Part shown: positions 2,550-61,066 of the stretch, piece after piece | Layout: each line of letters opens with the position of its first letter | Position numbering within the stretch: the stretch's first letter is position 1 | Assembly (NCBI GenBank): GCA_050331735.1 | Contig: JBHJGN010000058.1 | Location: 1-61,974 of the forward strand | Source: Cyanophyceae cyanobacterium | GTDB lineage: Bacteria; Cyanobacteriota; Cyanobacteriia; Cyanobacteriales; JBHJGN01 | DNA length: 61,974 nt | Direction of reading: 5' to 3' | Translations under genes and position numbers: made by a program | The notes under the pieces: generated by a model | The model's database searches: none | What the model saw: the letters and a program-made list of their open reading frames with translations, nothing else | What the model was told of the DNA's origin: nothing

Positions 2550-2706
2550 GTCCCTTTGGGACGGGGAAAGGGGAAGGGGGAAGGGGGAAAGGGGAAGGGG
2601 AGTAATTACCAAGTTTTTCTTTAAATCCTGTGTTCTTTCCTCGTCCCGCTAGGGACAATTTTCCCTTTCCCCGTCCGGAGGGACAGTTTCCCCGCAGCTT
2701 CGCTGC
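2550..2706. repeat. Composite (GGGGAAA)n...(TTTCCCC)n intergenic repeat with embedded mini-hairpins
   Basis: Purine arm at 2563-2601 and a pyrimidine arm. Hairpins GTCCC-TTT-GGGAC (2550-2562), GTCCC-GCTA-GGGAC (2643-2656) and GCAGC-TTC-GCTGC (2694-2706). Closely similar to 55345-55472. Confidence 0.85.
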
Positions 2707-5700
2707 TTAATTCTCTGGTACTGGTCCTTCTAGAGCGGGAGCGAGTTCTTCTACGGGTCTGACAATGGCTGGAGCCTCTGACTCTGGGGTAAAAATGGCT
2801 TCTAGTGCCGCCTCTAGCGTTTCTGCCATGACGATGTTGCTTTCGTATACCACAATAACCCGGGCTAGGGTTGGCAGACTGTTCTGCTCGGCTTCTAGGT
2901 ACAGCGGCTCTACGTAGAGCAGCGATTGCTCGATGGGAATTACTAACAGATTTCCCTGAATCACCCGCGATCCTTCTCGGTTCCAGAGAGAAATTTGCTG
3001 AGAAATAATCGGGTCTTGGTTAATTAGCGCCTCAATCTGATTCGGACCGTATACTAGCTCTTGTTTAGGAAACTGATACAGCAGCAGGTTGCCGTACTCT
3101 TCTCCGTCCGAACGACCCGCTAGCCAAGCATTTAGGTTCGGACGACTGATCGGGGTATAGGGATGAATCAGAATAAATTCTTCTGAGGTTGCCGTTGGCA
3201 GTTTAATGATGAGGTAGTAGGGTTCGATGGGTTGAGCTTCGGTTCCGTAAATTTCTTGGGGAATTTGCCACTGGTCTTCCCGGTTGTAGAATACCTGTGG
3301 GTCGGTCATGTGGTAGGTCAGTAAGCGCTCGGACTGAGTACTAAAGAGATCTTGCGGGTAGCGAATATGGCTCCGCAGAGTTGCAGGCATCGCTGCTAGC
3401 GGTTGAAACAGTTCGGGAAAAATTTTGTCCCAGGTCTGAATAATTGGGTCGCTCGGATTAGCAATATAGAAAGCAACGTCGCCATTGTAGGCATCGACGA
3501 CTACCTTAACCGAGTTCCGCAGGTAGTTAAAGTTGTTTTCTCCTGGATCTGAGTAGGGATAGCGATCGCTGGCGGTATAGGCATCAATAATCCAGTAGAG
3601 ATAGTGGGCTGGTTGGGATTCGTCCCCGTCAGCGACGACGAGGTAGGGGTCGCGGTCATAGCGTAAAAACGGGGCGATCGCCCGAACGCGGCGATTGATG
3701 TTGCGTCGAAACAGCAGCTTGGTTTGCGGGGTAAAGTTATCGGTAAACAGCATCTGCCAGTCTTTAAGGTAGGAGGCAAACAGCAGCCGTCGCCAGGCAG
3801 CACCAATGTTGATTCCTCCCGCGCCGTCGTAGGTAAAATAAACGTTTTCGTCGCCGCTGGGAAAGTCAAACTCTAGGGCTTCTGTGTCGGTCATGATGTA
3901 GTTATCGGTCATTTCCCCGTAGTAGATGCGCGGCTTTCCAATCGGGATACTGTCTCGGATCAGTTCGCTGGAGGTTTGCAGCGCTCCCTCATCATCTCCT
4001 GTGCCAATATTTCTGACGTAGTAGAAGGGCAGTCCTCCCTCGGCCACTAAGTTGACAGGAGAGAGGGTAAAACCATAGCCGTGGGTATAAACGAGGTGTC
4101 TGTTGACCCAGGTTTTAGCCTGCTGTGGGACTTCGCTGTAGTCGAGTTCCCGGGCGGCAATAATCACCTGCTGTCTTTCGGTTGCGGGGGTGGGCGGTTG
4201 TGGGGTCGGAACGGGAACAAAGTCAGAGTCGGTTTGTGCTTCCGGCAACGGAGTTCCGGCAGTATCGGCCACGTTTTCTGTAAGCAGCGTATAGCGGTCG
4301 ATATCGGCGTCGGGAAATCGATAGTAAAGTCGAATCTGCTGAAGTTGACGATTCGTTTGTAGAATCGGACGAGTATCCCACAGCCGGATATTATCGATGG
4401 TGAGGTCGTTTTCGGCAATATCTTCGGCGGTGAGTTGACCTTGAGGGTCGAAGGTTTGTACCTCAATGTCGTCTAGATCGAACGCTGAGCGGGTGAGGGC
4501 GATACTCCGCTCGATGTAGGGACGTTCTAAATCTAGCTCGTTGGGTTGAACGACTAAGCGCTGAACCGTCTCGCTCCCGATAGCCCCAGATATTAACAAA
4601 ACGAGATAAATCAGGAATGGCCAGGGCGAGAACGGAATCTGCCGCCGCCTGCGGGAATAGGAAGTCATTTGTCCTTTTCCCGACCCCGTGATTGCTTTGA
4701 GCAATAGCCAGACGGCGATCGCGATCGCTGCTACAGATAACACGGTTTCAATAGGCAACTGGACTTTCGCATCGGTGTAGCTCATGCCGTAGGTCACGCC
4801 GCGCTCTGAATAGAGTAACTGATAGCGCTCTAGCCAATGATGGAGACCCAGAGTGAGCATGACTGCACCGCCCAACGCATAGAGATGCCGCAGTTGGAGA
4901 CGAGAAAACCCAGGGAACTTGCCCTGCGATAGACTGTCTCCAGAGAGTAAATAGGCGAGGGTAACAGCGACCAAGGCATACAAAAACAGTCCTCCTAGCC
5001 AGAAATCGAGCAGTTGCCACAGGGGAAAGCGAAACAGATAAAAGCTAATATTGTTGCCAAACACCGGGTCGCTTTGCTCGAAAGGGGTGGGGCTGAAATA
5101 CTGCAACCCTCTTGCCCAGTTCCCCGCCATTACTAGCCCAAATACAAAGCTGAACCCAACGGCGATCGCCCGCAGCCAAAACCGCTGATTCAGCAGCAGC
5201 ACCACGGCCACTCCCACCACGGCCCCAATGCGCCACAGTCGCTCAACCACCTCCCTCAGAAAGCGCGGCGAGAGGGAGACATCAAACCGAGACGGCAGGG
5301 GTGGCGTTACGTTGGTGAGGCTATAATCGGGTCGCCAGACCGAAATAGCAACCTCCGTGTAGTAGACCAGCATTAAGGCGATCAGCAGACTGAATCCGAG
5401 CGTAATCGTCAGCAGCGAGGGGAGCCCAAGAAAGCGCGATTGAGGAGTAACAGAGCGTACTGGCTCCTCCTGAGCCGAGTCAGCGGATAAGACACCGGGA
5501 GACGGAGCTTGCGGTGTCCGTTGGTTAACAGGCCATTGCCACCGCTGAGCAAACGACAAATTTCCCCATAAGAAGGCCAGCGAAACGCCACTAGCGATCG
5601 CCCACAGACCGAGCTGGGTCTGCAACCGCCGGATAAACGTCAGCAGATAATTGACTTCCTGAAACCAAAAAAGTTCTGCTGCTAAATAAGCCAGCAACGA

Positions 5701-5772
5701 CAGGACTAAACCGATCGCGAACAGCACGATCAGCACTTGTAGAAGACGGTCCCAGAAGCGTTTTGGCATCAA
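2707..5772 (-). CDS. UPF0182 family membrane protein
   Basis: Multiple N-terminal TM helices; [27 protein letters not shown] and YVEPLYL motifs. The exact start is uncertain. Confidence 0.92.
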
Positions 5773-5781
5773 TACAGCGCC

Positions 5782-6088
5782 GGGGAAAGTCGCTCCGCGA
5801 CGGGGAAAGGGTAAAGGGGAAGGGGAAAAGGGGGAGACGTATGAGTGGCTGTTTCCCTTTTTCTCGTCCTGTAGAAGACTTGTTTGGCTATTTACATTGT
5901 GACAGATAATTCATTTTCCGAAGGGAAAGTCGCTCCGCGACGGGGAAAGGGAAGGTTCTTGAAGAACAAGACAAGCAGACAAGATTGAGGAACAAGCTGA
6001 TTTATTCTCCCTTTCCCCCTTTCCCTTTGCCCTTTTCCCGCGCCGCAGGCGCTATCCCTTTGCCCTTTTCCCGCGACGCAGGCGCTTT
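5782..6088. repeat. Cluster of the same composite purine/pyrimidine repeat between UPF0182 and mutM
   Basis: GGGAAAGTCGCTCCGCGACGGGGAAAGGG occurs at 5783 and 5923. The core AATAAATCAGCTTGTTCCT is on the minus strand near 5988-6006. Hairpin GCGCC-GCA-GGCGC at 6040-6052 and a variant at 6073-6085. Confidence 0.85.
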
Positions 6089-6921
6089 TGGCAGCAAGGA
6101 CAAAAGTGAGCCGAACGTCCCGTCAACCGGATCCGCTCAATGGGGGTACCGCAAAAGCGGCAGGGTTCTCCTTGGCGACCATACACCCAGGCAACACCTC
6201 CGTAATTGCCCTTGACCCCTAACAGGTTGAGAAAGCCGCTAAAGGTTGTGCCGCCTCGGTCGATCGCTGCCTGCAAAACTTCAATAATTGCCTGACGTAG
6301 GCGCTTGACCTGTTCTGGTGTAAGGGTGCAGGCCGCTTCTTGTGGATGAATCTGGCTTTTAAAGAGCGATTCGTCGGCGTAAATATTGCCCAGTCCGGCA
6401 ACAACTCTTTGATCGAGGAGCAACGTTTTAATCGCGCGGCGACTCTTTGTGAGGCGATCGCTCAAATACTCAAAAGAAAATTCAGCCGAAAACGGCTCTG
6501 GTCCGAGCAACTGAAGCCCCGTCACAATCTGCTGCTGCGGGTGTTCTGGCGGCACCCACCACATCTGACCGAACTGCCGCATATCGACAAACCGCAATTC
6601 CTGTTCTTCCTGAAGAAACAACCGGATGCGAGTGTGTTTTTGCAGCGGTTCATGGACCGACAGCCACAGCAGTTGACCCGTCATGCGCAGATGGACTCCT
6701 AACCAGCCAGCAGAGCCGTTTTTCTGTAGTTGAGCCAGGAGGTATTTGCCTCGTCGCTGCCACTGAACGAAGGTCGTTCCGGTGATGCCAGCGATAAAGG
6801 TAGCTGGGGAAGGGTGGGCCAGCGAGCGCGCTAGCAACACTTCCCCCCCCTGAATGGTTTGTCCGAGTGTAATTTGATTTAACCCTCGACAAACTGTTTC
6901 GACTTCTGGCAGTTCTGGCAC
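6052..6921 (-). CDS. mutM: Formamidopyrimidine-DNA glycosylase
   Basis: N-terminal PELPEVE, RRGKYL, HLRMTG, H2TH GLGNIYADE and C-terminal zinc finger CRFC...CPCC. Confidence 0.97.
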   Translation of the reverse strand: MPELPEVETVCRGLNQITLGQTIQGGEVLLARSLAHPSPATFIAGITGTTFVQWQRRGKYLLAQLQKNGSAGWLGVHLRMTGQLLWLSVHEPLQKHTRIRLFLQEEQELRFVDMRQFGQMWWVPPEHPQQQIVTGLQLLGPEPFSAEFSFEYLSDRLTKSRRAIKTLLLDQRVVAGLGNIYADESLFKSQIHPQEAACTLTPEQVKRLRQAIIEVLQAAIDRGGTTFSGFLNLLGVKGNYGGVAWVYGRQGEPCRFCGTPIERIRLTGRSAHFCPCCQKRLRRGKRAKG

Positions 6922-6924
6922 TGC

Positions 6925-7308
6925 TTAACGAGCTTCGGTGCCTTGGTTAGGATCGCCCTCTTGCTTTTTGCTGCCTTCGGGTGATTCTGGTGAAGCGGCG
7001 GGCTTTTCTTGTCCGACTGCACCGCTACCGGTTCGGCGCTGTTGCGGATCGAGCTTGGTTTGCTTGCCGCCGGATGCTGTCGGCGTTGCCTTTTTACCTC
7101 CGGCTTTCTTCTTTTTGGGAGCCTCAATTTCTAGCACTTCGTCTTCGCCAAAGTTGTTGGTGTTGACGCCGGCGTAGTTCACTTTGTCAAAGCGAACGAT
7201 CACCGGGTAAATAATGCCGCTTTTATCGACACTAGCTACTTGACCAACATCTTGATACCAGTAAGATTCTTTGCGCAGAATTCTAACTTTTGAACCGCGT
7301 TCTACCAT
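6925..7308 (-). CDS. psaE: Photosystem I subunit IV (PsaE) with a long C-terminal extension
   Basis: [15 protein letters not shown]...[20 protein letters not shown] is the PsaE core. It lies 3 bp upstream of mutM. Confidence 0.95.
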
Positions 7309-7460
7309 AGTAATTTTCCTTATTCTTTTAGATAAAAGCCTACACCTCGAACGGGACTCTCAGCTCAGATCTTAGTTTAAGAATTATTGCAGCTCTGCTT
7401 CTGCGAGGCAGGCGATCGCTGGCCAGACAGCGCTTAGCAAATTCGGCGGGGCTTGTCCGT

Positions 7461-7745
7461 TTACGAAATCATTTCATCTTCTGGGGAATCTGACAGGGGC
7501 AGCGGACAACAGTTAACATCATCAAGACAGACTTTTCCCCACTGTAGCCCCCAGCGGACTAGCTCCACTCGGTTTCCGGTCTCTGTTTTATCCAAAATAT
7601 TGCTGACGTGGTTATCCACAGTTCTCTTACTAATGTCTAGCTTTTGAGCGATTCCGAGATTCGTTAAACCAGCGGCTACTAGCTCAAGAATTTCTAGCTC
7701 TCGCTCCGAAAGCGATGCTGAGGGCTTCAACTCACCATTCGCCAT
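7461..7745 (-). CDS. pedR: Small LuxR-type regulator PedR
   Basis: Stand-alone LuxR HTH (LSERELEILELVAAGLTN...ISKRTVDNHVSNIL) with C-terminal GKVCLDDVNCC cysteines. The ATG at 7745 is preferred over the longer track ORF. Confidence 0.85.
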   Translation of the reverse strand: MANGELKPSASLSERELEILELVAAGLTNLGIAQKLDISKRTVDNHVSNILDKTETGNRVELVRWGLQWGKVCLDDVNCCPLPLSDSPEDEMIS

Positions 7746-7986
7746 AGATATTTTCCTAGGTACATACACTCACTTTTTCTATTGTAAAAGATAGTTAAGT
7801 CGCTCAACAAACCGAAAAGAATTTAGGGTTCGTTTCTTGTCGTGGCGGGACAATGGTACTCTGGGGAGAGTAATTGCTCCACGAGCAGTTTTAAGTACCG
7901 TCATTCATAACGTCACAAGCTGTTAATTCTTAGCTCAAGATTGCGAACAGCTTATCTCCGCTGATTGATGACCGACCATTAAAAAC

Positions 7987-8985
7987 ATGCAAAATCCTCG
8001 TGTTATTTGCCTTGGTGAAGTCCTATTTGACCTCATTGCCGATCAAAAGGGACGAGCGTTAGCAGAGGTAGAATCCTGGAGTGCCTATCCAGGAGGGGCT
8101 CCCGCTAATGTCGCCTGTGCCCTGGTTAAGCTGGGTACTCCCACCGCTTTTGTCGGCTGCGTAGGGGAGGATCGCGCCGGGACAGAACTGGTTGAGCTAT
8201 TGCAGTCTGTGGGGGTAGAGACCTCCGGGATTCAGCGGCATCCCAGTGCGCCGACTCGCCAAGTGTATACACTTCGTTCTGCGGGGGGCGATCGCTCATT
8301 TGTTGGGTTTAGCTACGGTGACGCAGCGCAGCCAGAGATGCTCGCTCCAGATCGCTTTGCCGATGCCTATCTCCAGGCAGATTATCTGCCTTCAGAGCTA
8401 TTTGCCGAGGCAGATTTTTTAATTACTGGCACTCTAGAGTTAGCGTATGCCCACTCCCAAGCAGCGGTACTTCGCGCTCTTGAATTGGCGAAGCAGTACG
8501 AAGTGAAAATAATGGTGGATGTGAACTGGCGACCAATTTTTTGGAAAGATGACGAGCAGGCTAAGCAGGAAATTGAAAAACTCTGGCCGTTGCTGGACTT
8601 TCTGAAGGTGTCTCAAGAAGAAGCCGAGTGGCTGTTTGGGTCGGCGGATGCCGGAGAGATTGCCCGTCAGCTTGGTGCGGCTGAGGGAGTGGTGGTTTCA
8701 GCGGGCGATGCACCGGTTAGCTACTATTTGGGCGGAAGCGCCGGGACAGTAGCGCCTTTTGACGTAGATGTTCAAGACACAACCGGAGCCGGGGATAGCT
8801 TTGTTGCCGGGATTGTGCATCAGCTCGTGCAGCAAGGTCTAGGCTGTCTGAGTGACCCGAAAAAAGCCCAAGCAGTCATTGCCTACGCCTGTGCCGTAGG
8901 CGGAATGACGGCAACCAAAGCCGGAGCGATCGCCTCGCAACCCACTGCTGCCGAGGTAGAGACGTTTTTGCAGAAAATGTCTTAG
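7987..8985 (+). CDS. PfkB-family carbohydrate kinase (fructokinase-like)
   Basis: GGAPANVA and DTTGAGDSF PfkB signatures; DVNWR. Confidence 0.92.
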   Translation: MQNPRVICLGEVLFDLIADQKGRALAEVESWSAYPGGAPANVACALVKLGTPTAFVGCVGEDRAGTELVELLQSVGVETSGIQRHPSAPTRQVYTLRSAGGDRSFVGFSYGDAAQPEMLAPDRFADAYLQADYLPSELFAEADFLITGTLELAYAHSQAAVLRALELAKQYEVKIMVDVNWRPIFWKDDEQAKQEIEKLWPLLDFLKVSQEEAEWLFGSADAGEIARQLGAAEGVVVSAGDAPVSYYLGGSAGTVAPFDVDVQDTTGAGDSFVAGIVHQLVQQGLGCLSDPKKAQAVIAYACAVGGMTATKAGAIASQPTAAEVETFLQKMS

Positions 8986-9065
8986 CAGCGTCAGAAGTTT
9001 TAGTCAGCAGGCAGCAAACTATGCTCATAACCGAGTCAAGCTAAGCGCTAATAGCTCAGTGAAAT

Positions 9066-10121: not shown

Positions 10122-10427
10122 AGCAACTCAGTCCTGGTTAATTTCCACTCGTGCTGAACGCTATTCTAGGCTAGATTTTTGCCGACGAGCGTTAGCTACT
10201 CCACAATCGGGACATTGACTAGAGTCACCAGGGTGGTCGGAATTTTTGGAACGAATCGCGTACACTGATTCCAGATACACATGGCCTGGGTTGAGTTAGT
10301 GATGAGGGCGCATGTCAGCATCCCGCCACGAACTTTCCTAGGGCGTTGGCGAAGCTCCTCCATAGGAGACACTGAATTCGTTATGGCTGAACACAAAAAG
10401 CCATCGCTGGGTAGCTAAGAGGTACTA

Positions 10428-11570: not shown

Positions 11571-11682
11571 GTTCTCGTTGGGGCGATCGCGATTGAGCTG
11601 TGGATGACATTTTTCGGTCACATTTGCTGGTCATACTGTTAGGTATCAACATTAAACTGACAGTTTTTCCTCGCATTGAGTA

Positions 11683-12921: not shown

Positions 12922-12936
12922 TTTGGAAGTTAGTCG

Positions 12937-13422
12937 TTAATCATCGATGATAAGTGGGTTTGCCAGACGCTTTTCCATCGCATAGTTGGTAAATGTTTCT
13001 CCTCGGCGAGCGACCTGCTGTTCTTTGAGCACTGAAAAACCGAGGCGTTGGAAGAAGGGCTTGGCAGTCATGCTGGCTTCTGTAAACAGACGAGGCAGCC
13101 TCAACTGTTGAGCCTGCGCCTCTATTGCTTCATAAAGACGAATCCCGACTCCTTGGCGCTGATAGTGCTTGTGGCAGTAGAAGCAATCGATATGACCATT
13201 TGGCTCAAGTTGGGCAAAACCAGCGATCGCTCCCGCTTGCTCGGCAACAACGGTAAACCGACTAGAGCATACCTGTTCCCAGTCCCTGAAATAGATGTCA
13301 TCAGGAGCCCATGCCTGAACCTGGCTTTCTGAATAATCGCGGCGATTGATTTCGCGCACTGTATCGTGAAATAACTGCGCGATCTGCTCAGTATCCTCGG
13401 GTCGAAACAGCCGGATTTTCAC
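12937..13422 (-). CDS. GNAT acetyltransferase (YafP-like)
   Basis: DYSESQVQAWA, YQRQGVG and EASMTAKPFF motifs. Its start overlaps the yebC stop by 4 bp. Confidence 0.9.
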   Translation of the reverse strand: MKIRLFRPEDTEQIAQLFHDTVREINRRDYSESQVQAWAPDDIYFRDWEQVCSSRFTVVAEQAGAIAGFAQLEPNGHIDCFYCHKHYQRQGVGIRLYEAIEAQAQQLRLPRLFTEASMTAKPFFQRLGFSVLKEQQVARRGETFTNYAMEKRLANPLIIDD

Positions 13423-22972: not shown

Positions 22973-23267
22973 AGCCGTTTTTTCCTCCAGATATTAGTCA
23001 ACCCAATTTATAAAATTGATGTAGGAAAAACACCTCTGTACAATCACATAAATTAGAAGAATATTCTTTTTATTTGCTCAGTAATCTTCCAGGTTAGTGA
23101 GAGTTGAGCAAGAGCTTTATTATTTCTTAAACATTGTTAGCTAATTTAGGGCCATTCTCTAGCTTTTTCATTAGTACTAGTAAAGCTGGCTCTCAATATT
23201 CTAAAGGGATCTGAAACGTTGATGACATAATACCAATTAGAAAAAGTAATAGGAGACTTAATGAGTT

Positions 23268-23327
23268 GGGGGAAAGGGGAAGGGGTCAAGGGGAAAGGGA
23301 AGCACAGCAGCTCTTTGCCCTTGAACC
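23268..23327. repeat. Short copy of the purine-rich heptamer repeat
   Basis: GGGGGAAAGGGGAAGGGGTCAAGGGGAAAGGG...CTCTTTGCCCTTGAACC forms an imperfect inverted pair. Confidence 0.65.
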
Positions 23328-23696
23328 TACAATGCTTAGTTAGTTTAAGGAACTATCTGACTACTTTCGGTAAATGGTGTAACATATCTTTACTTTTTTC
23401 TCGGCAATAATAGCTGACTTTACCAGGAACTCTGCGCGAATGCCTCGTTATCGCAGGATTTTGTCTCCTGTTGTCTCCGTCGTTGCTTGTTGCTAGCCGG
23501 AGTACTTAGTAATTGAAGATTGACCCTGTTCTTTAAGAAGCCTTGCAACCTACGGTTTGTACGGAATTAATACTAATTTACATAAATATTTCGGTATTTT
23601 TACTAAACCGCAAAGTATGACTATCTACTTAAATTGCTACAGATGTAAGCAGTTTATTTTTGATCGGTTCAAGCTGACCACTACAGGAGAAAAATC

Positions 23697-53330: not shown

Positions 53331-53522
53331 GCTCCTGTTACTCGTTACCGATAGATGCCCAGGAATCGGTCATCGGTAGCGATCGCAGCATCAGCTCACT
53401 GTTTGTGCTGCTCAATTTTTGTTGTCAATCAACAAACTTACAATACTACCTAACCGATAACAAAAAACTGATTATCAATTGAAAAACTTGTACAATTGTG
53501 CTTGCTCATCGTTTTGGGAAAC

Positions 53523-55319
53523 ATGCAACTGCGATACTCGCCGCGCCGGACCAAAATTGTTGCCACGATTGGACCTGCTACCGCCCAACCAGAGGTTCTT
53601 CGCCAGCTCATTCAAGCTGGAGCAACCACTCTGCGACTGAACTTCTCTCACGGAACCCATGAAGATCACCAACGCAGTATTCGCCTGATTCGGCAAACGG
53701 CGTTTGAACTGAATCAGCCAGTCGGCATTCTGCAAGACCTCCAGGGACCGAAGATTCGCCTCGGTAAATTTGCCTGTGGCTCGATTGTTCTCAAAAATGG
53801 CGATCGCTTTACCCTCACCAGCCGTCAAGTAGAGTGTACCCAAGAAATTAGCTACATCAGCTACGAACGCCTTGCGGAGGAAGTTCCCCCAGGAGCTAAG
53901 ATTCTGCTTGACGATGGCAAGGTAGAGATGCAGGTAGAGGAAGTGGACTTAACCCAGCAAAACTTGCACTGTCGCGTCGTTGTCGGTGGTTCTCTGTCAA
54001 GCAACAAAGGCGTTAATTTCCCAGGCGTTTATCTCTCTGTGCGCGCTTTAACCGCGAAAGATCGTACAGATTTAATGTTCGGACTCGACCAAGGGGTAGA
54101 CTGGGTAGCGCTTAGCTTTGTTCGCAACCCCCAAGACATGCTGGAAATTAAGGATCTAATTGCTAGCGCGGGTAAATCGGTTCCCGTCATTGCCAAAATT
54201 GAGAAACACGAAGCCATTGAGCAAATGGAAGCCGTGCTTTCTCTGTGTGATGGCGTGATGGTCGCCAGAGGAGACTTGGGAGTTGAACTACCAGCCGAAG
54301 ATGTCCCGATTCTGCAAAAGCGACTGATTGCAACGGCAAATCAGCTTGGCATCCCCGTGATTACCGCGACGCAGATGTTAGACAGCATGGTTAACAATCC
54401 GCGCCCGACTCGGGCGGAAGTTTCTGACGTAGCGAACGCGATTCTAGACGGGACGGATGCCGTCATGTTGTCTAACGAAACGGCAGTGGGTAAGTACCCG
54501 ATTGAAGCGGTAGCGACAATGGCGCGGGTGGCAAGGCGCATCGAGCAAGAACCAACCAACGTTGAGCAGATGGAGTCTCCGCAGCGGACGATTCCCAATG
54601 CCATTTCTGGAGCCGTGAGTAAAATTGCTGAGCAGCTTGATGCTGCCGCGATTATGACGCTCACTAAGACAGGAGCTACGGCTCGGAACGTGTCTAAATT
54701 CCGTCCCCGCACTCCTATTTTAGCCGTTACCCCCCACGTTGATGTCTCTCGTCAGCTTCAGCTTGTTTGGGGAGTGAAGCCGCTGTTGGTGCTGGATTTG
54801 CCTTCTACTAGCCAAACGTTTCAGGCGGCAATCAACGTCGCTCAAGAGAATGATTTACTGGCTGAGAGGGATTTAGTTGTGATGACGGCAGGCACTCTTC
54901 AGGGAGTTCCTGGTTCTACGGATTTAATCAAGGTAGAGGTGGTCACCGCCGTCCTCGGGCAAGGATTAGGCATTGGTCAGAGCGCTGTCAGCGGACGAGC
55001 GCGAGTTGCTCATCATGCCAGCGACATTGGCAACTTTAGTACGGGAGAGATTTTAGTCGCGCCAGCCACAAACGCCGAATTTGTGGACGTGATTCGCAAA
55101 GCTGCCGGAATTATTACCGAAGAAGCGAGCCTAACCAGCCATGCAGCCGTGTTGGGTTTACGCTTAGGAGTTCCGGTCATTGTTGGCTTTGAGCAGGCTA
55201 CTCAAGCGATTCGGGAGGGAGCCATCGTCACCCTCGATGCTCAGCGCGGGTTGGTCTATTCCGGCACGATGACAAGAAGTGCTGGGAACGGGAGACCGTT
55301 ACCGCTACCAACTCAATGA
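53523..55319 (+). CDS. pyk: Pyruvate kinase with C-terminal PEP-utilising mobile domain
   Basis: RRTKIVATIGP, RLNFSHG, DLQGPKIR, IAKIE, MVARGDLGVE, TATQMLDSM and a C-terminal TSHAAV motif. The ATG at 53523 is preferred over the track start at 53496. Confidence 0.96.
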   Translation: MQLRYSPRRTKIVATIGPATAQPEVLRQLIQAGATTLRLNFSHGTHEDHQRSIRLIRQTAFELNQPVGILQDLQGPKIRLGKFACGSIVLKNGDRFTLTSRQVECTQEISYISYERLAEEVPPGAKILLDDGKVEMQVEEVDLTQQNLHCRVVVGGSLSSNKGVNFPGVYLSVRALTAKDRTDLMFGLDQGVDWVALSFVRNPQDMLEIKDLIASAGKSVPVIAKIEKHEAIEQMEAVLSLCDGVMVARGDLGVELPAEDVPILQKRLIATANQLGIPVITATQMLDSMVNNPRPTRAEVSDVANAILDGTDAVMLSNETAVGKYPIEAVATMARVARRIEQEPTNVEQMESPQRTIPNAISGAVSKIAEQLDAAAIMTLTKTGATARNVSKFRPRTPILAVTPHVDVSRQLQLVWGVKPLLVLDLPSTSQTFQAAINVAQENDLLAERDLVVMTAGTLQGVPGSTDLIKVEVVTAVLGQGLGIGQSAVSGRARVAHHASDIGNFSTGEILVAPATNAEFVDVIRKAAGIITEEASLTSHAAVLGLRLGVPVIVGFEQATQAIREGAIVTLDAQRGLVYSGTMTRSAGNGRPLPLPTQ

Positions 55320-55344
55320 CTGTGTCGCAGGCGTAAGAAAAGCG

Positions 55345-55472
55345 GTAAAAGGGGAAAGGGGAAAGGGGAAGGGGTAAAGGGGAAATAAATCAGCTTGTTC
55401 CTTAGCCCTGTGTTCTTTTCCCGTCCCGCTAGGGACAGATTTCCCTTCTCCCCTTTCCCGTCCCGGAGGGAC
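55345..55472. repeat. Composite purine/pyrimidine repeat between convergent pyk and TPR genes
   Basis: (GGGGAAA)n arm, core AAATAAATCAGCTTGTTCCTTAGCCCTGTG, and hairpins GTCCC-GCTA-GGGAC (55423-55436) and GTCCC-GGA-GGGAC (55460-55472). Confidence 0.88.
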
Positions 55473-55474
55473 TT

Positions 55475-58400
55475 CTATCCTTCAATCAGTTGCCAAAATC
55501 GCTCGGTTTGAGAAATGGTTTCAAAATCGGGGTCTGTTCTGGCTTCTTCTCGAAGACTAGCATCTTTCTCAATGGCTTGCCTTAAGTTATCAAAGGCGGA
55601 TTGGGCCTGGTTTTGTAGAGCATGACAAATGGCTTTATTGTAGTAGGCACGGGCGTAGTCGGGATTAATCTCTATCGCTCGGTCAAAGCTTTCAATGGCT
55701 TCTTTGTCTCGCTCTAGCTTGATCAGGGTATCGCCTCTGCGGTTCCAGGCTTGATAGAAATCTGGTTTAGCGGCTGCTGCTTTGTCGAAGGAAGCTACCG
55801 CCTCTTCGTACCGCTCTAGCATATCTAACGCCATACCGCGATTCATCCAGGCGATCGCATCATCGGGTTTAATCTGCACAGCCCGATCGAAAGATTGAAA
55901 TGCTTCCTCGTGGCGCTGCAAGCTTCCCAGTACCGCGCCGCGATCCACCCAGGCTTGGTGAAACTCCGGATTAATTTCTAGCGCTCGATCGAAGGAGGCG
56001 ATCGCCTCGTCGGTGCGCTTGAGTCGGCGCAGCATCATGCCTCGATTCAGCCACGCCGTCTGATTGTCGGGTTCTAGCTTAACCACACGGTTGAAGGCGG
56101 CGACAGCGCCCTCGTAGCGCTTGAGTTCTTTGAGGATTAACCCCCGCTCGTACCAAAATTTCGGCTCATCCTGTAGCTCCAGCGCTCGGTCAAACGAGGC
56201 GATCGCCTCTTCATACTGCTGTGATTTGCCGAAAGCAATACCTCGCTGATACCACACCTCCGGCTGAGGCTGAAGTTCGAGCGCTCGATCGTAGGCGGCG
56301 ATCGCTTCTGGGTAACGCTCTTGACTCAATAGCTCGTTCCCCCGCTCAACGATCTCGTTGGGGTTGAGAAATAGCTGCGGATGATTCGTTTGCAGACGCT
56401 CTAGCTTTTCTGTTATGGTTTGCATTCCCTCTAAAACTTCAGCGATCGCTGATTCCACAATTGATGTTGCTGAAATTTCGGTAAGCTGCTGTAAAATTTG
56501 CTCTTTCTGTGCTTGAGCATCGGTATGTACCTGGGAGAGTTGTTCAGCCAGTTTATTCTCTAAATTACTAACTTTTTGCAAAATTTGTGTTCTACGCTCT
56601 TGCAAGGTGGACCGAAACTCAGAAACCCCAGTCTTCAATTCGGTTTGCAGTTGTTCGAGCTGCTGAGCGAGCTGCTCTTTTTGTGCTTGAGTGTTAGTCT
56701 GCAACTGTGCAGATTGCGTTTTGGCTTCTGCTTCAAGGGTTTCCAAACGCTTGAAAGCGTCATCTTTTTTCCCTTGAATTTCGGTATTTAAGCTCGCCGC
56801 TTGTTCATTGACTTCATTGGTTAGAGTTTCTAACTGCTGGAAAGTATTACTCTTTCTCTCTTGAATCTCGGTATCTAAGCTCGCCACCCGCGCCTTAACT
56901 TCATCAGAGAGGGTGGTTAAGTCTTTCAACGTGTCATCCTTTTTCCCGTGAATTTCGGAGCCTAACTGAGCCACTTGCTCGACGAACTCTGTTTCAGATT
57001 GTTTGAGCTGATCTAGACTCTGTTCCTTTTGCTGCTTAATATCAGACTGAGACTGAGCAAGTTCTGCCGTAATGTTCTCACTAATCTGTTCGAGGTTTTG
57101 GAGGGTTAATGCTTGTTGCTGCTGCGCCTTTTGTTCTGCCTTGGCTTTGATGTGAGCGAGCTGAGGTGAAAAGTCCGCTTCTAGCTGCTTGATATGTTCT
57201 AGAGACATATCTCGCTGCTGTTCTACTGTTGTTGTTAATTGAGATAGCTGCGTGGAAAACTGCGTTTGCGACTGCTGCAAATCGATTAAAACAGTCTCTT
57301 TGCGTTGCTCTGCCTCCGCCTGAAGCTTGGCGAGTTCTGGCGCGAATTCAGAGCTGAGTTTCTCTAAATTTTCTAGGGTTGTATCTCGTTGCTGTTGAGC
57401 CTCGGTATGAAGTTTAGATAGTTGCGTTCCAAATTGAGCTTGAGCCTGCTGTAGTTCGGTGAAAAGGTCGTTCTGGCGTTCTTGAGCCTCTGCTTGCAGC
57501 TTAGCGAGTTCAGGCGCAAATTCAGCACTGATAGTTTCTAAATTTTGCAGCAGTTGATGGCGCTGCTGCTGAGTGTCGGCTTGCAGTTCTGAAAGCTGCA
57601 CTGAAAATTGCGTTTGCGACTGCTGGAGGAACTCTAACACCTGATTCTGGCGCTCTTGCACGTCAGCTTGCAGTTGAGTCACCGCTGGCGTAAAGTCAGC
57701 GCCAATCTTCTCGAGATTTTGCAGCATCGCGTCTTGCTGCTGCTGAGCGTTCGCTTCTAGGTGAGAGAGGCGATCGCCAAACTGCTGTGCTAACTGTTGC
57801 AGGCTGTCTAAAAGAGCCTGCTGGCGTTCTTGCATCTCGGTTTCGAGAGCGGATACTTGAGGAGTAAAGTCAGCGCTGATGGTTTCCAGGTTGCGGATCA
57901 GGGAGTCTTGCTGCTGTTGAGCGTTGGCTTGTAGCTCATCTAAATGCTTGCCAAACTGCGATCTCAGCTCGTGCAGCGAGTCTGCAAACTCTGTTGACTG
58001 GGTTTCTAGTTCTCTGCGGGACTGTTGCTTAAACTGCGCTAATTCAGACAGCAGCTTTGATACCTGAGCGCGTTTAGCATCAAGATCTTTCTGGAAGTTA
58101 GTGGCTTCACGATTAACGGTGTTGGCAACGGCTTCCGCTGATTGCAGGAGCGTTTCTACTCTTTGATTGGAGCGTTCGATTTGACCTTCTAAATCGGTGC
58201 GCTGATTGAGATGGACGCGCACTAAATCCGCCACCTCTCGAATGACAGCTCGTCGCAGCAGCCATAGGGCGGCGATCGCGGCTCCCACCAGCAGCACTAG
58301 AGTGGATAAGAGAATCAGGAGGAGAATTGTTGCCTGAGTTTGCGCCTGGGTTTGTGCCTGTTCTGGGCGCACCTCAGAGGGGGTTTGCGCGAGGACAGGA

Positions 58401-58489
58401 GGTGAAGTCGGAGTAATGGCGATCCCAATCGCTAGCGCTAGGGCAGACTGACTAGACAACACCAGTTGAAATCGTTTGCGCTTCATCAA
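55475..58489 (-). CDS. Membrane-anchored coiled-coil plus TPR-repeat protein
   Basis: Signal-like N-terminus and a TM helix, ~600 aa of Q/E/L-rich coiled coil, and about eight TPRs (AIASFDRALEINP type). Confidence 0.9.
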   Translation of the reverse strand: MMKRKRFQLVLSSQSALALAIGIAITPTSPPVLAQTPSEVRPEQAQTQAQTQATILLLILLSTLVLLVGAAIAALWLLRRAVIREVADLVRVHLNQRTDLEGQIERSNQRVETLLQSAEAVANTVNREATNFQKDLDAKRAQVSKLLSELAQFKQQSRRELETQSTEFADSLHELRSQFGKHLDELQANAQQQQDSLIRNLETISADFTPQVSALETEMQERQQALLDSLQQLAQQFGDRLSHLEANAQQQQDAMLQNLEKIGADFTPAVTQLQADVQERQNQVLEFLQQSQTQFSVQLSELQADTQQQRHQLLQNLETISAEFAPELAKLQAEAQERQNDLFTELQQAQAQFGTQLSKLHTEAQQQRDTTLENLEKLSSEFAPELAKLQAEAEQRKETVLIDLQQSQTQFSTQLSQLTTTVEQQRDMSLEHIKQLEADFSPQLAHIKAKAEQKAQQQQALTLQNLEQISENITAELAQSQSDIKQQKEQSLDQLKQSETEFVEQVAQLGSEIHGKKDDTLKDLTTLSDEVKARVASLDTEIQERKSNTFQQLETLTNEVNEQAASLNTEIQGKKDDAFKRLETLEAEAKTQSAQLQTNTQAQKEQLAQQLEQLQTELKTGVSEFRSTLQERRTQILQKVSNLENKLAEQLSQVHTDAQAQKEQILQQLTEISATSIVESAIAEVLEGMQTITEKLERLQTNHPQLFLNPNEIVERGNELLSQERYPEAIAAYDRALELQPQPEVWYQRGIAFGKSQQYEEAIASFDRALELQDEPKFWYERGLILKELKRYEGAVAAFNRVVKLEPDNQTAWLNRGMMLRRLKRTDEAIASFDRALEINPEFHQAWVDRGAVLGSLQRHEEAFQSFDRAVQIKPDDAIAWMNRGMALDMLERYEEAVASFDKAAAAKPDFYQAWNRRGDTLIKLERDKEAIESFDRAIEINPDYARAYYNKAICHALQNQAQSAFDNLRQAIEKDASLREEARTDPDFETISQTERFWQLIEG

Positions 58490-58576
58490 GTCTTCCTCTC
58501 TAACGTTGTTTGCGATCGCCTATTTCTAGATTAATTAAAATTATATTCAAGTTATGTAAGTCTCCAGGATTGACGA

Positions 58577-59218
58577 ATGCTATTAGAACTGAAGCGCATT
58601 ACGGTTGCTCCCGGGCAGCGGGTTCTGCTCCACGACACTAGCTGGCCAGACTTTGAAGCAATTTTAGAGGATTTGGGAGAACATCGCGCCTCTAGAGTAG
58701 CTTACGACAATGGAACGTTAGAAATCATGACCCCGCTGCCGGAACATGAAAAAAACAAAGAAACAATTGGAGATTTAATCAAAGCTCTTCTAGAAGAATT
58801 AGATGTGGAGTTTTGTCCGTTAGGTTCGACCACATTCAAAAAAACGACAGTGAGCAAAGGAATCGAGCCGGATAACTGTTTCTACATCCAAAATGAAGCG
58901 GCAGTTAGAGGCAAAAATCGATTAGATTTAACGGTCGATCCTCCCCCAGACTTGGCATCAGAGATCGATATTACCTCGCGCACTCATCCGAGTATTTACG
59001 AAGCGCTAGGAGTGCCTGAACTGTGGCGATTTGAAGCAGAGCAACTCCAGATTAATGTGCTTCAAGAAGGCAAGTATGTAGAGTGCGAGTATAGCCCTAA
59101 TTTTCCGAATCTACCTCTGCGTGAGGCCATTCTTGACTATTTGCAGCAAAGTAGAACCCTTGGCAGAAATAAGGCGATGAAGGCTTTTCGCGCTTGGGTG
59201 AGAGGGTTCAACAGCTAG
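58577..59218 (+). CDS. Uma2-family (DUF820) endonuclease-like protein
   Basis: LEIMTPLPEHE, GSTTF, EPDNCFYI, PPPDLASEID and LGVPELWRF motifs. Confidence 0.93.
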   Translation: MLLELKRITVAPGQRVLLHDTSWPDFEAILEDLGEHRASRVAYDNGTLEIMTPLPEHEKNKETIGDLIKALLEELDVEFCPLGSTTFKKTTVSKGIEPDNCFYIQNEAAVRGKNRLDLTVDPPPDLASEIDITSRTHPSIYEALGVPELWRFEAEQLQINVLQEGKYVECEYSPNFPNLPLREAILDYLQQSRTLGRNKAMKAFRAWVRGFNS

Positions 59219-59319
59219 CTTTACCAGAGGCCAATATATAACTCGGCATCAGCGTATGTTTCGCCCCTCCGGTGCAAGGTTTGTTAGTCCTCGTGGCACC
59301 GCAAGATGCTCCAAGAAGA

Positions 59320-59568
59320 TTAACTGGCTTGTGCTAAAGAGCGCACAGTAAGGATTTCGTCGGCACGTAAGGCTTCTACAGCAGATACTGGAACAGCTAC
59401 CACCGCGATAGACTCCCCCACTGCGTTAAATACCTCCAACACGCATCCGTCTTCTCCACCTGTGGGATGAGAAACAAAATCTATTAAAGTGGCAATATCA
59501 CCTGCTCTAAGCTGGTGTTCTGGTACATTGCGGGTGAGAGCAACTTCCTGATATAGCTCAAGTGTCAT
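59320..59568 (-). CDS. DUF4926 domain protein (putative antitoxin/immunity partner)
   Basis: MTLELYQEVALTRNVPEHQLRAGDIATLID...LEVFNAVGESIAVVAV. The ATG at 59568 overlaps the upstream gene's end. Confidence 0.8.
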   Translation of the reverse strand: MTLELYQEVALTRNVPEHQLRAGDIATLIDFVSHPTGGEDGCVLEVFNAVGESIAVVAVPVSAVEALRADEILTVRSLAQAS

Positions 59569-59899
59569 AGCGAGACTCCTTGCGAGGTTTGAGAGTGACA
59601 AACTGAAACTTACTGTCAATCTGTCGCTGTAGCCAAATGGTAGTCACCGATAAGTTCACTCTATTATTACCGATTAGCTCTCCTTCAACCTGATAGAAGG
59701 TGCCGTATTCATTAGTTCTATCTTCTACCGCTTCGCCTGACTCAACAACTGCCTGGATATCTGTCCGCAATGCTTCTGGGTTCTCTAGGGTAAATCCAGC
59801 TTGTGCCAGAAATTTAGATTTGTCATTTCTTGCCTTGTATACCAACAAATAGCGAGTCAATTTATCATTTGGGACGATCGCATCGGCAGGAATTCTCAC
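59558..59899 (-). CDS. DUF6883 domain protein (putative toxin)
   Basis: KLTRYLL...DKSKFLAQAGF...NEYGTFYQVEG...VTTIW...FVTLKP. Confidence 0.8.
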   Translation of the reverse strand: MRIPADAIVPNDKLTRYLLVYKARNDKSKFLAQAGFTLENPEALRTDIQAVVESGEAVEDRTNEYGTFYQVEGELIGNNRVNLSVTTIWLQRQIDSKFQFVTLKPRKESRYDT

Positions 59900-60488
59900 A
59901 TTGACACCTCATATCCCCCTAGATAACCGTCTAGCATGCTCATGCGATCGCTCGATGGGGACTTTATTTGTTGAGCGGCGATTTCTAATTGCTGAACGTG
60001 GATTGGAGCAACAGCCAAGGCGATCGCCTTTAAAATTAGGCTGGTCAGTTTCTTGTTGAAATTTTATTTTAAGTCTTGTCAATAGGGAGCTTTATGTTTC
60101 AGCAATAATCGTTAAGCTCAAATTAAATGCACTATTAATTGAGGCGATCGCCACTAAAATTTAGTCGTCGGTCAATCTGGATAATAAATGAAAAGTGACG
60201 CAGCATACTTTTCTGGCCTTTAGATGCCTCTTCAGTTTTTATGACAATTGAAGCTTGAGTCCGGAATGCGATCGCCTGAGCCTGTAGCTGTTAATATCTC
60301 GGCATGAAAGAGAGCGTTCTCAGAAAACAATTCCAATATTGTTCAAGAGCAGTTAGAGAGGCTGTACTGTGATGCCGTCTTACATTTTAGTTGTTTGTTG
60401 ATGGTTGACTGTCCTCTGCCGATTTCACTTGCAAATCTTATTAGCTTGGGGAACTGTAAAATGGAGTTCTTACTTCTCATAAATTGAT

Positions 60489-60929
60489 ATGGCAGCGGAA
60501 CAGGACGTAAAAAAATATCTGGCTCACTGGTTTCAGTTAGGTAAAAAAGTTTCTCTTCAGAATGGCAAAGAAACCTTATCGCCTCAATCTGTGATTCAAG
60601 GCGATCGCTACTCAGCAGAATTTGAGCAGTGCTGGCAGCGCGTTCTTGATGCTGATAGCAAGGATTGCTACCTAGAAGGAACCGACCAGACCATTCAAGA
60701 ACTGCTCTCAGACCAGTGGGACATCAATTCCTGCGCTCGATGCAGCATGCCCATTCCTATGAAGACGATGGGAATGCCGCCTCTCGACTGTCCCTGTAGC
60801 GATTTAAATAACTGGCCCAACACCGAACTGCCCGCTCCGCGATCGCCCGTCGATAGTTCAGCGCGGCTTAACACCATTCGGCAGCGACTCAACAAAGCGC
60901 CGCAGGCGCGGGAAAAGGGGAAAGGGTAA
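60489..60929 (+). CDS. Conserved cyanobacterial hypothetical protein with CxxC/CxC motifs
   Basis: YLAHWFQLGK, CYLEGTDQTI, CARC, CPC and WPNTELP motifs. Confidence 0.82.
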   Translation: MAAEQDVKKYLAHWFQLGKKVSLQNGKETLSPQSVIQGDRYSAEFEQCWQRVLDADSKDCYLEGTDQTIQELLSDQWDINSCARCSMPIPMKTMGMPPLDCPCSDLNNWPNTELPAPRSPVDSSARLNTIRQRLNKAPQAREKGKG

Positions 60930-61066
60930 GGGGGAAAGCGCCGCAGGCGCGGGAAAAGGGGAAAGGGTAAGGGGGAAAGGGGAAATAAATCAGCTTATTC
61001 CTTAGCCCTGTGTTTTTGTCCCGTTCCGGAGGAACTATTTACCCCTTTCCCGTTCCGCAGGGACTG
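60894..61066. repeat. Composite purine/pyrimidine repeat between convergent genes, including a 41-bp tandem duplication
   Basis: GCGCCGCAGGCGC at 60897 and 60938; core AAATAAATCAGCTTATTCCTTAGCCCTGTG; hairpins GTTCC-GGA-GGAAC (61023-61035) and GTTCC-GCA-GGGAC (61052-61064). Confidence 0.88.

Follow-up and report, generated by a model that had tools for sequence, protein, structure and literature searches.

The window, the whole 61,974-nucleotide stretch of a cyanobacterial contig analyzed here, contains short palindromes set into arrays of purine heptamers. The question it raises is whether these mini-hairpins are micro-elements in their own right, recognized or mobilized by a protein, as an earlier note on this DNA had proposed, or parts of something larger. 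Every hairpin reported in that note was found at its place, and its variants with an AAA loop (2550) and with GCTA loops (2643 and 55423) are all present (Table 1). The loops of the hairpins at 5789 and 5929, TCC on the plus strand, are GGA on the minus strand.

Table 1. Hairpins, heptamer arrays, cores and repeat units of the window
Feature	Position	Strand	Remark
GTCCC-TTT-GGGAC mini-hairpin (AAA loop on minus strand)	2550..2562		caps purine arm of element A on the outside
Element A purine heptamer array, 5.7 units	2563..2601	+	
Element A diverged core-like spacer	2602..2642	+	by-eye reading; no detection by the core model
GTCCC-GCTA-GGGAC mini-hairpin	2643..2656		4-nt loop, G-N-N-A on C-rich strand
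Degenerate hairpin in pyrimidine arm	2673..2684		5' arm short by one base; direct reading
GCAGC-TTC-GCTGC mini-hairpin	2694..2706		outer cap adjoining stop of minus-strand ORF 2707-5772
GTCGC-TCC-GCGAC mini-hairpin	5789..5801		flush ahead of purine array 5802-5833
GTCGC-TCC-GCGAC mini-hairpin	5929..5941		flush ahead of short purine array
Element B core	5971..6005	-	core model E = 4.4e-4
Pyrimidine-strand heptamer array	6006..6039	-	purine strand is minus
GCGCC-GCA-GGCGC mini-hairpin	6040..6052		within 33-bp unit repeated 2.0 times (6022-6086)
GCGAC-GCA-GGCGC imperfect copy	6073..6085		4/5 pairs
Element C purine heptamer array	55348..55385	+	arm without hairpin
Element C conserved 38-bp core	55385..55422	+	E = 3.7e-10
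GTCCC-GCTA-GGGAC mini-hairpin	55423..55436		
GTCCC-GGA-GGGAC mini-hairpin	55460..55472		outer cap, 3 nt ahead of stop of minus-strand ORF 55475-58489
GCGCC-GCA-GGCGC mini-hairpin	60897..60909		outer cap, within terminal part of ORF 60489-60929
Higher-order 41-bp unit (hairpin + 4 heptamers)	60894..60979	+	2.1 repeats, 100% identity
GCGCC-GCA-GGCGC mini-hairpin, second copy	60938..60950		
Element D conserved core	60985..61022	+	E = 2.4e-8
GTTCC-GGA-GGAAC mini-hairpin	61023..61035		
GTTCC-GCA-GGGAC imperfect hairpin	61052..61064		4/5 pairs (one T/G); outer cap; mixes two stem classes

Position within the heptamer arrays

Taken over the whole window, palindromes with a 5-bp stem and a 3-nt loop are not enriched (69 were counted, where a rate of 1/1024 per position predicts about 60), and the hairpin signal is confined entirely to the heptamer context. 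Chance or an assembly artefact could be argued from this count and from the breaks that independent contigs of the source run show at the elements. However, genome-wide a perfect hairpin with a 5-bp stem lies flush against the first G at 411 of 2428 heptamer-unit starts, where about 10 would be expected by chance. The reversed pattern, used as a control in the motif search, gave 1 match against 254 for the true pattern, and the 13-nt units, which are far shorter than the reads, are present on most contigs. We therefore regard an origin by chance or assembly as having a negligible probability.

Period-7 tandem units lie between genes and form 524 purine arrays genome-wide. A perfect hairpin ends at offset 0 in 189 of these arrays (23 at the next commonest offset and no more at any other), which bears out the fixed position within the heptamer that had been claimed. 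Similarly, 176 of the 192 GTCCC-type palindromes in the genome are flush to GGG or CCC. The proposed AA/GGG junction holds on one side: on the purine strand the 3' edge of the hairpin is flush to GGG, whereas the 5' edge is not uniform, the GCGCC and GTTGC types abutting AA(A) and the GTCCC, GTTCC and GTCGC types sitting behind a tail of 2-3 nt. The unit measures 13-14 nt, or 15-16 nt when the tail is counted, and its stem keeps a sharply defined length of 5 bp between unpaired flanks.

Conserved pairing and loop types

The stems fall into at least nine covarying classes. Among 343 sequences, conditioned on pairs 1 and 5 only, all three inner pairs were kept in 295 (shuffle mean 57), and each inner pair was Watson-Crick in 94-96%; at pair 3, four kinds of pair occur (C:G 132, T:A 105, G:C 72, A:T 12). 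A comparison of 48 paralog pairs yielded 9 hairpins with altered stem letters and all 5 pairs intact, against about 0.5 expected by our own arithmetic if the changes were independent, although some of these compensated changes may be module swaps, since alignments of repeat arms can match non-homologous modules. Paralogs differ at 7.2% of stem sites, 22.3% of loop sites and 9.9% of the remainder. The pairing constraint is not absolute, as 16 of 69 paralog hairpins retain 4/5 pairs. Covariation of the stems, with structure kept over sequence, and the C-G closing pair were both correctly recognized in the earlier note.

Its preference for GNA loops also stands, but is specific to the C-rich strand: G-N-A was found there in 208 of 309 triloops, compared with 30 on the purine strand, and G-N-N-A occupies the C-rich strand in 53 of 86 tetraloops. 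The GCGCC class has no loop bias (G..A on either strand in 26 of 61), and the flip of the loop relative to the arms occurs in this class (GCA 9, TGC 9) but not in the GT classes. DNA mini-hairpins of the C-GNA-G and C-GNNA-G types were described by Hirao, Yoshizawa and colleagues, and according to passages of a review (PMC13037366), G-N-A alone of 64 triloops formed mini-hairpins in vitro. Because the loops match these types, a fold at the level of DNA is favored. A nearest-neighbor model gives −3.5 kcal/mol on either strand, a value that may not cover any special stability of such loops. The DNA-type loops and the conserved pairing agree with the suggested selection on single-stranded or cruciform DNA shape; the associated suggestion of a protein is considered below.

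The likeness to DNA mini-hairpins lies in the C-G closing pair, the G-N-A or G-N-N-A loop on one strand and the very short stem; most of the GCGCC class lacks this loop. The natural examples named in parts of the same review (the phage G4 origin, RSF1010 ssiA and the phage N4 early promoters) are single regulatory sites read by primase or RNA polymerase, whereas here hundreds of copies lie within a repeat.

Anatomy and placement of the mosaic repeat

Rather than standing free, the hairpins belong as modules to an asymmetric mosaic repeat about 110-200 bp long. Its parts follow in the order A-rich flank, purine arm, conserved 38-bp core and pyrimidine arm. Heptamers of the purine arm are interrupted and capped by GCGCC- or GTTGC-type hairpins and those of the pyrimidine arm by GTCCC-, GTTCC- or GTCGC-type hairpins. 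Islands running from purine to pyrimidine number 166, against 10 in the opposite order, and the arm ends in a perfect hairpin on the left in 90 and on the right in 85 of the 166 (control, 2). Right arms carry GTCCC (36), GTTCC (21), GTCGC (16) and GCGCC (5) hairpins, and left arms GCGCC (21), GTTGC (21), GTCGC (9) and GTCCC (1). The core model detected 103 cores, and only 152 of the 411 flush hairpins lie within 200 nt of one. Elements occur at more than 160 sites, with A-rich sequence at one side and T-rich sequence at the other; a target-site duplication is not defined. Hairpins are spaced at 22, 29 and 36 nt, and the 33-bp unit of the window (6022-6086) has 96% identity between its repeats. 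As the assembly derives from a short-read metagenome and contigs break at the elements, the number of modules given for an element may not be exact.

Two elements of the window are predicted to fold into a long stem between their arms, from which the mini-hairpins branch, with RNA fold energies of −59 and −73 kcal/mol. The z-scores of whole-element folds are weak (−1.6 to −2.2) because shuffled G-rich and C-rich sequence pairs too. We tentatively prefer, at somewhat less than even confidence, to explain the hairpins as self-folding palindromic-unit modules of a lineage-private mosaic intergenic repeat, folded most likely as DNA and needing no dedicated protein. Since the arms are complementary, a single strand of the element would fold back on itself, and since the hairpin classes differ between the arms, pairing from arm to arm is impossible for the hairpins, which would have to self-fold as side branches. 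An arm may tolerate only self-pairing inserts with stable loops, which would preserve base pairing, C-G closure and G-N-A or G-N-N-A loops while the stem letters drift. The fold probably forms in DNA that is single-stranded at replication or extruded.

Selection for self-folding would keep the stems perfect, probably with the aid of template switching at replication, by which both arms would be repaired at once; a published account describes such switching as able to create and repair perfect stems (PMC8794818). Local multiplication of the modules may proceed by slippage of units made of a hairpin and n heptamers, and whole elements may persist at the least harmful places, directly behind stop codons. 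A dedicated protein would not be required by the data.

The mosaic repeats are indeed located behind stop codons. Of the genome's 2875 tandem gaps, 48 hold a detected core, as do 35 of its 847 convergent gaps and 2 of its 852 divergent gaps; in 37 of the 48 tandem cases the core is closer to the stop upstream. This location and the enrichment in convergent and tandem gaps, with almost none in divergent gaps, would suit an element acting in RNA, that is, a transcribed 3'-UTR structure serving as a bidirectional terminator or as a REP-like block to 3' exonucleases, with the mini-hairpins as selected RNA branches. So would the predicted RNA folds and the lack of orientation bias among cores (26 vs 22), as either orientation is expected of a fold-back. 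However, cores were detected in no more than about 4% of convergent gaps and 1.7% of tandem ones, and the elements are thus not the terminator in general use. They are not followed by a U-tract, no Rfam family matched, G:T mismatches are no more favored than A:C (17 vs 18), and only 13 of the 53 G-N-N-A tetraloops are of the RNA-favored GNRA type, the other 40 being non-GNRA. We consider a role in RNA unlikely.

Among the genomes compared, the repeat is private to one cyanobacterial lineage. The hairpin motif had 0 matches in 30 genomes of the same order, and the strict hairpin-plus-heptamer pattern matched two public collections at chance level only. Of 400 other cyanobacterial genomes that were sampled, 21 also have the purine heptamer array itself, and a flush palindrome was found in 1 of 58 runs of similar arrays from five other cyanobacteria, against 319 of 1116 here. 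In the same genome, none of the 96 heptamer arrays of a separate MITE family carries a hairpin. Both comparisons weigh against the view that the hairpins are a mutational by-product with no selected role, in which stalling or slippage in purine-pyrimidine arrays leads to template switches that create and re-perfect short inverted copies. That view would accommodate the hypervariable loops, the GGGAC and GGAAC arms lying one base away from heptamer substrings, and one-step changes at several stem sites, such as GCGCC to GTTGC with three pairs altered, and its mechanism is documented, as noted above. It predicts neither the one-strand loop bias nor the split of classes between arms, and the sharply fixed stem length with unpaired flanks also speaks against it; we judge it rather improbable.

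Mobility and relation to known repeats

A further possibility, which we likewise hold to have a low probability, is that each 13-16-nt hairpin was inserted at an A/GGG junction as a micro mobile element and is read as a single-stranded hairpin by a RAYT-like Y1 transposase or a primase-like enzyme. The fixed insertion phase, the hairpins at both element ends, like those of IS200/IS605-type elements, and the strand-specific loop bias expected of single-strand recognition agree with it, and Nostoc SDRs are described as mobile in passages of two papers (PMC5861425, PMC4390886). Gaps between paralogs are most often 7 nt long (172) and form another peak at 13-15 nt (34), for example a 13-nt GCGCC unit or a 15-nt TT+GTCCC unit facing uninterrupted arrays; however, the gap-bearing pairs are only 71-79% identical, and a gap may therefore be a deletion or a misalignment. 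The genome has eight Y1_Tnp loci, but six adjoin TnpB as ordinary IS200/IS605 units and two are solo fragments, and at none of them does a hairpin or heptamer element come within 700 bp of the Y1 gene. Moreover, the empty MITE-family arrays contrast with about 40 occupied ones expected by our own arithmetic at the genome-wide occupancy of 17%, hairpins occur in no other context, and different classes in the two arms are not expected of random insertion. Neither a RAYT-like partner gene in the genome nor an autonomous parent among six candidates was found. Consequently, the protein proposed to recognize or mobilize the hairpins has no counterpart among these loci, and the idea of a free-standing micro-element gives way to hairpins held almost only by one mosaic family.

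To call the system undescribed was also an overstatement, as palindromic repeats in cyanobacterial heptamer arrays (SDR) and REP/BIME mosaics are known kinds. The closest are the Nostoc SDR/STRR repeats and REP/BIME, of which the present repeat is a local variant. Elhai and colleagues reportedly found SDRs in 2008, with a repeat unit of 21-27 nt, nested within the tandem heptamers of Nostoc punctiforme and its relatives. Both kinds are very small, partly palindromic cyanobacterial repeats precisely placed within tandem heptamers and other repeats, and both are intergenic, noncoding and without a known enzyme. The units here are shorter than those of SDRs and, in their many covarying stem classes, bound to one mosaic element, whereas SDRs are dispersed. 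Part of one report gives SDRs as absent outside Nostocaceae (PMC5861425); the host genome, the sole representative of its family among the genomes compared, probably lies outside Nostocaceae.

REP and BIME of E. coli and Pseudomonas are, in the relevant passages, likewise high-copy extragenic palindromic units mosaicked with other motifs, clustered behind genes in either orientation (PMC3116915, PMC3733652). REP palindromes measure 20-40 nt and are headed by GTAG or CGTC (PMC3733652), whereas the 13-nt units here have stems beginning with GTC, GTT, GCG or GCA and never with GTAG; there is no RAYT gene flanked by repeats, and the heptamer arms and conserved core have no counterpart in BIME. Compared with MITEs, the arms are inverted and hairpin-capped, and a parent is lacking among the candidates. 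With the STRR and G-rich heptamer repeats of cyanobacteria and Xanthomonas, the present arrays share an intergenic location near stops and G-quadruplex potential, but those arrays are plain, as the single flush palindrome in five genomes indicates; the paper describing them (Rehm et al. 2015, PMC4692102) mentions no SDR, STRR or interruptions, and uses "palindrome" and "hairpin" only as general background. The present genome also has 4851 copies of the HIP1 octamer, where 85 would be expected.

Mini-hairpins and the anatomy of the element

The hairpins that an earlier note had listed in the window were all found at the positions claimed for them. They are here called mini-hairpins, with a 5-bp stem and a loop of 3 nt (13 nt in total) or 4 nt (14 nt), and flush when they end directly before the first G of a purine heptamer. 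The window as a whole contains no excess of palindromes with a 5-bp stem and a 3-nt loop (69 compared with approximately 60 expected at 1/1024 per position), and the excess is limited to a single context, the heptamer arrays. The genome (5.57 Mb in 99 contigs, of which the window is one, C58) carries 524 purine heptamer arrays that are 16 nt or longer. A perfect hairpin directly precedes the first G in 189 of these arrays and every other offset accounts for at most 23, which bears out the proposal of a fixed position in the heptamer. When all heptamer-unit starts without a preceding G were counted, 411 of 2428 had a flush perfect hairpin, compared with approximately 10 by chance (four loop lengths, each at 1/1024). 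At offset 0, sequences with a 3-nt loop had five of five pairs in 309 cases, four in 83, and three in 144. Palindromes of the GTCCC type (stem classes are named by the 5' arm) are flush to GGG or CCC in 176 of 192 cases genome-wide, and the remainder lie mostly beside degenerate units.

Positions of mini-hairpins, cores, adjoining ORFs and the separate MITE in the window
Feature	Position (nt)	Remark
Perfect mini-hairpins	2550, 2694, 5789, 5929, 6040, 55460, 60897, 60938, 61023	5-bp stem, 3-nt loop
Variant mini-hairpins	2643, 55423	4-nt loop
Imperfect mini-hairpin copies	6073, 61052	4/5 pairs
Conserved 38-bp core	55385-55422	used to orient elements
Other or diverged core	2602-2642
ORFs whose stops are abutted by the four window elements	2707-5772, 6052-6921, 53496-55319, 55475-58489, 60489-60929, 61039-61686
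MITE copy	23231-23381	without mini-hairpins

The hairpins had been proposed to be a micro-element system, but they were found not to be free-standing and to be parts of mosaic elements of approximately 110-200 bp with a conserved 38-bp core. Oriented by this core, an element consists of an A-rich flank, a purine (left) arm of heptamers and hairpins, the core, a pyrimidine (right) arm of heptamers and hairpins in which each hairpin is followed by a short A/T tail, and a T-rich flank. Islands with the purine-then-pyrimidine order number 166, compared with 10 in the reverse order. A profile search found 103 copies of the core at E ≤0.01. For only 152 of the 411 hairpins is a detected core found within 200 nt, and therefore other or diverged cores exist, one of them in the window. 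The two arms are asymmetric in their hairpins: the right arms contain GTCCC (36), GTTCC (21), GTCGC (16), and GCGCC (5), and the left arms GCGCC (21), GTTGC (21), GTCGC (9), and GTCCC (1). The outermost unit of the arm abuts a perfect hairpin in 90 left and 85 right arms of the 166 islands, with a further 32 and 31 having four of five pairs, compared with 2 at a control position 30 nt farther out.

The distance from one hairpin to the next is 22, 29, or 36 nt, and the window contains a 41-bp tandem unit (a hairpin plus four heptamers; 2.1 repeats, 100% identity) and a repeated 33-bp unit (96% identity). Gaps between paralogous elements are most often 7 nt (172) or 6 nt (102) long, and a further maximum lies at 13-15 nt (34). 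The arms therefore lengthen and shorten in steps of heptamers and of pieces the size of a hairpin or of a hairpin together with heptamers. The paralog pairs with clean hairpin-sized gaps share only 71-79% identity and are not decisive as proof of insertion.

The core, which contains a 5-nt word directly repeated approximately 15 nt apart (55394-55416), is better conserved than any other part of the element and could be a protein site. In right arms on four other contigs (C24, C39, C1, and C5), several copies carry, in place of the first mini-hairpin after the core, a longer nested insert of approximately 35-40 nt that is itself an imperfect hairpin, which appears to be an additional module type of the mosaic. 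Element B of the window has two more palindromic pieces adjoining a second purine arm (5868-5881 and 5955-5967; one imperfect and one perfect, GTTCT-TGA-AGAAC), and this locus looks like two fused elements.

Pairing constraint and loop polarity

Nine stem classes cover 388 of the 411 hairpins: GTCCC (108), GCGCC (61), GTTGC (58), GTCGC (55), GTTCC (54), GCAGC (23), ATCGC (11), GCCGC (10), and GTGCC (8). To avoid circularity, covariation was examined in 13-mers chosen for their context and for pairs 1 and 5 alone (343 sequences, 109 distinct). Watson-Crick pairing holds at the three inner positions in 95.6%, 93.6%, and 94.5% of these, and pair 3 occurs in all four types (C:G 132, T:A 105, G:C 72, and A:T 12). 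All three inner pairs are kept in 295 of the 343, whereas 1000 shuffles of the 3' halves gave 57 on average and never more than 80. The covariation that had been noticed in the window thus persists genome-wide.

Because common descent among copies inflates counts of this kind, paralogs were also compared (48 disjoint element pairs, median identity 84%). Among their 69 triloop palindromes, a few of which are chance palindromes not of the family, 17 were identical, 19 differed only in the loop, 6 had an indel, and 9 had changed stem letters with all five pairs retained; 16 had dropped to four of five pairs and 2 to three. One compensated case is the element at window 60910 compared with an element on contig C39 (GTCCC to GTTCC), and another is that at 5802 compared with one on contig C97 (GCGCC to GTTGC), in which three pairs changed together. 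Per-site divergence was 7.2% in stems (49/684), 22.3% in loops (45/202), and 9.9% elsewhere (506/5111), figures for which alignment within repeat arms may match non-homologous modules. By our arithmetic, independent changes at 7.2% would give approximately 0.5 compensated pairs in 315. Perfect stems may be maintained by selection, by template switching during replication, or by the two together. A single template-switching event can produce or restore both stem arms (PMC8794818, as far as the part consulted goes), which fits the simultaneous change of three pairs and the high variability of the loops. These same two features would suit hairpins that are purely a mutational by-product; considering also the partition of stem classes between the arms and a loop preference that differs between the strands, we regard this explanation as quite unlikely.

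Triloops of the form G-N-A occur on the C-rich strand in 208 of 309 hairpins and on the purine strand in 30 (chance, 6% each), so that the loop bias suggested by the earlier note is borne out across the genome. Tetraloops follow the same code: among 86, the C-rich strand has G-N-N-A in 53 and the purine strand in 1, and 15 are of the G..C form. A perfect palindrome has identical arms on either strand and the loop is therefore the sole mark of its orientation; by this mark, the GT classes are strongly polar relative to the heptamer strand. The exception is the GCGCC class, with a G..A loop in 14 and 12 of 61 on the two strands, and it is this class, present in both loop orientations, that had been seen as a loop "flip".

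Gene-end placement and the folding molecule

In a crude map of 4673 ORFs (2875 tandem, 847 convergent, and 852 divergent gaps), 48 cores lie in tandem gaps, 35 in convergent gaps, and only 2 in divergent gaps; 17 fall within the crude ORFs. The upstream stop is the nearer end in 37 of the 48 tandem gaps, and core orientation shows no bias (26 compared with 22). Such placement would be expected of elements acting in RNA as part of 3' untranslated regions. A wobble test for an RNA signal was uninformative, with 17 G:T and 18 A:C mismatches, and a search of the whole window against Rfam gave no match at the gathering score. DNA nearest-neighbor energies do not separate the two hairpin strands. 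The RNA-favored GNRA type accounts for just 13 of the 53 G-N-N-A loops, and among 64 triloops only G-N-A, together with G-N-N-A tetraloops, is described as forming mini-hairpins in vitro in the part of PMC13037366 consulted. The loop types thus argue for DNA over RNA as the probable folding molecule, and we consider a 3'-UTR role unlikely.

We tentatively suggest, at somewhat less than even confidence, that the hairpins are DNA-level self-folding modules within a fold-back mosaic element. As the arms are complementary, a single strand of the element would fold back on itself, and in predicted folds the mini-hairpins are side branches of this structure. Hairpin inserts would be unable to pair across the arms because the classes differ between them. 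A self-folding insert would be the least disruptive kind in a fold-back arm, and shape might therefore be conserved without conserved letters. If the DNA-level reading is true, the genome offers several hundred natural replicates of a minimal hairpin that show compensatory changes and a loop code specific to the strand, and rare in-genome evidence of constraint on short hairpins of DNA besides those of RNA.

Lineage restriction, candidate partners and assembly

A degenerate hairpin-plus-GGG pattern gave 254 matches in this genome (reversed control, 1) and none in 30 genomes that share its order but belong to other families. A strict GTCCC-hairpin-plus-heptamer pattern gave 33 matches here, 1 (an Anaerolineae MAG) in a set with one genome for each of approximately 185,000 species, and 3 in a metagenome collection. 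We rejected these four outside matches as chance, since none has HIP1 (a cyanobacterial octamer that occurs 4851 times in this genome, where 85 are expected, with 70 of the occurrences in the window), only one has a single short array, and none resembles this genome. When a whole window element was searched against 400 cyanobacterial genomes, 20 others matched in nothing but the purine array, and one in a 24-nt stretch just past the core start; the hairpin arm was unmatched among the 400. With an identical routine, a flush perfect palindrome was found at 1 of 58 G-rich purine runs elsewhere (30 loci from five genomes matched by the element query), compared with 319 of 1116 here. A separate MITE, approximately 150 bp long and flanked by TA, has terminal inverted repeats and is present in 96 copies, several of which lie at the ends of contigs. 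It has the same purine heptamer array as the elements, of 11, 18, 25, or 32 nt (4 + 7n), and none of its 96 arrays contains a mini-hairpin.

It had also been proposed that a protein recognizes or mobilizes the hairpins, and none was found. The genome contains eight matches to the Y1 transposase family: six adjoin a TnpB gene, as ordinary IS200/IS605 units do, and the other two are solo fragments. All eight are more than 700 bp from any hairpin or heptamer element, and we therefore rejected a RAYT or IS200/IS605 link. An autonomous parent element was also rejected, as six candidate arm-gene-arm intervals have no common interior. Although hairpins at the outer ends of so many arms would suit independently mobile hairpins with a reader protein, we judge this possibility improbable. 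A bolder proposal, which we hold to be more improbable again, is that no smaller self-propagating DNA modules have yet been seen than these 13-16-nt units, which would be specified by shape (a 5-bp stem, C-G closure, and, on the C-rich strand, a loop of G-N-A or G-N-N-A) and not by sequence. A candidate factor reading the single-stranded hairpin would copy them into the A|GGG phase of heptamer arrays, and the arm repertoires would reflect two strand-specific insertion modes.

The nearest described kinds are the small dispersed repeats (SDR) nested within Nostoc heptamer arrays (Elhai et al. 2008, as cited in the parts consulted of PMC5861425 and PMC4390886), REP/BIME mosaics (PMC3116915 and PMC3733652, in part), and plain STRR or G-rich heptamer arrays (PMC4692102, in part). 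The hairpin units differ from SDR in size and from REP in lacking the head motif and RAYT, and therefore belong to neither family. The claim of an undescribed system is nevertheless too strong, since kinds close to it have been described. Only Elhai et al. 2008, as cited, was found on hairpins within STRR arrays; the portions consulted of Delihas 2011 (PMC3184786) and Rehm 2015 (PMC4692102) do not treat such inserts. The present elements would probably extend SDR-like nested palindromes past Nostocaceae and provide a tractable case for BIME-type mosaic growth, whether by hairpin-plus-heptamer slippage, template switching, or a dedicated enzyme. If they are merely tolerated selfish DNA, they still form a marker set for strain typing.

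Contigs of the sequencing runs X1-X3 end at elements, a warning for assemblers, and the listed joints, with short sides of 21-33 letters, are probably junctions of paralogous copies. The breaks might raise the question of an artefact, to which we give next to no weight considering the 411 flush hairpins where approximately 10 are expected. Among sequencing runs listed as carrying the sequence, the only one is the probable source run, with no RNA run beside it. In run X1, window 53400-61900 is also covered by a second contig set at approximately one-quarter of the main depth with clustered base differences in coding parts (e.g., 54731-54794 and 61105-61153), which suggests a co-occurring related strain. 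On the plus strand, window 24270-53330 is a single open frame of 9686 amino acids with a 348-bp unit repeated 2.5 times near its end (52452-53306).
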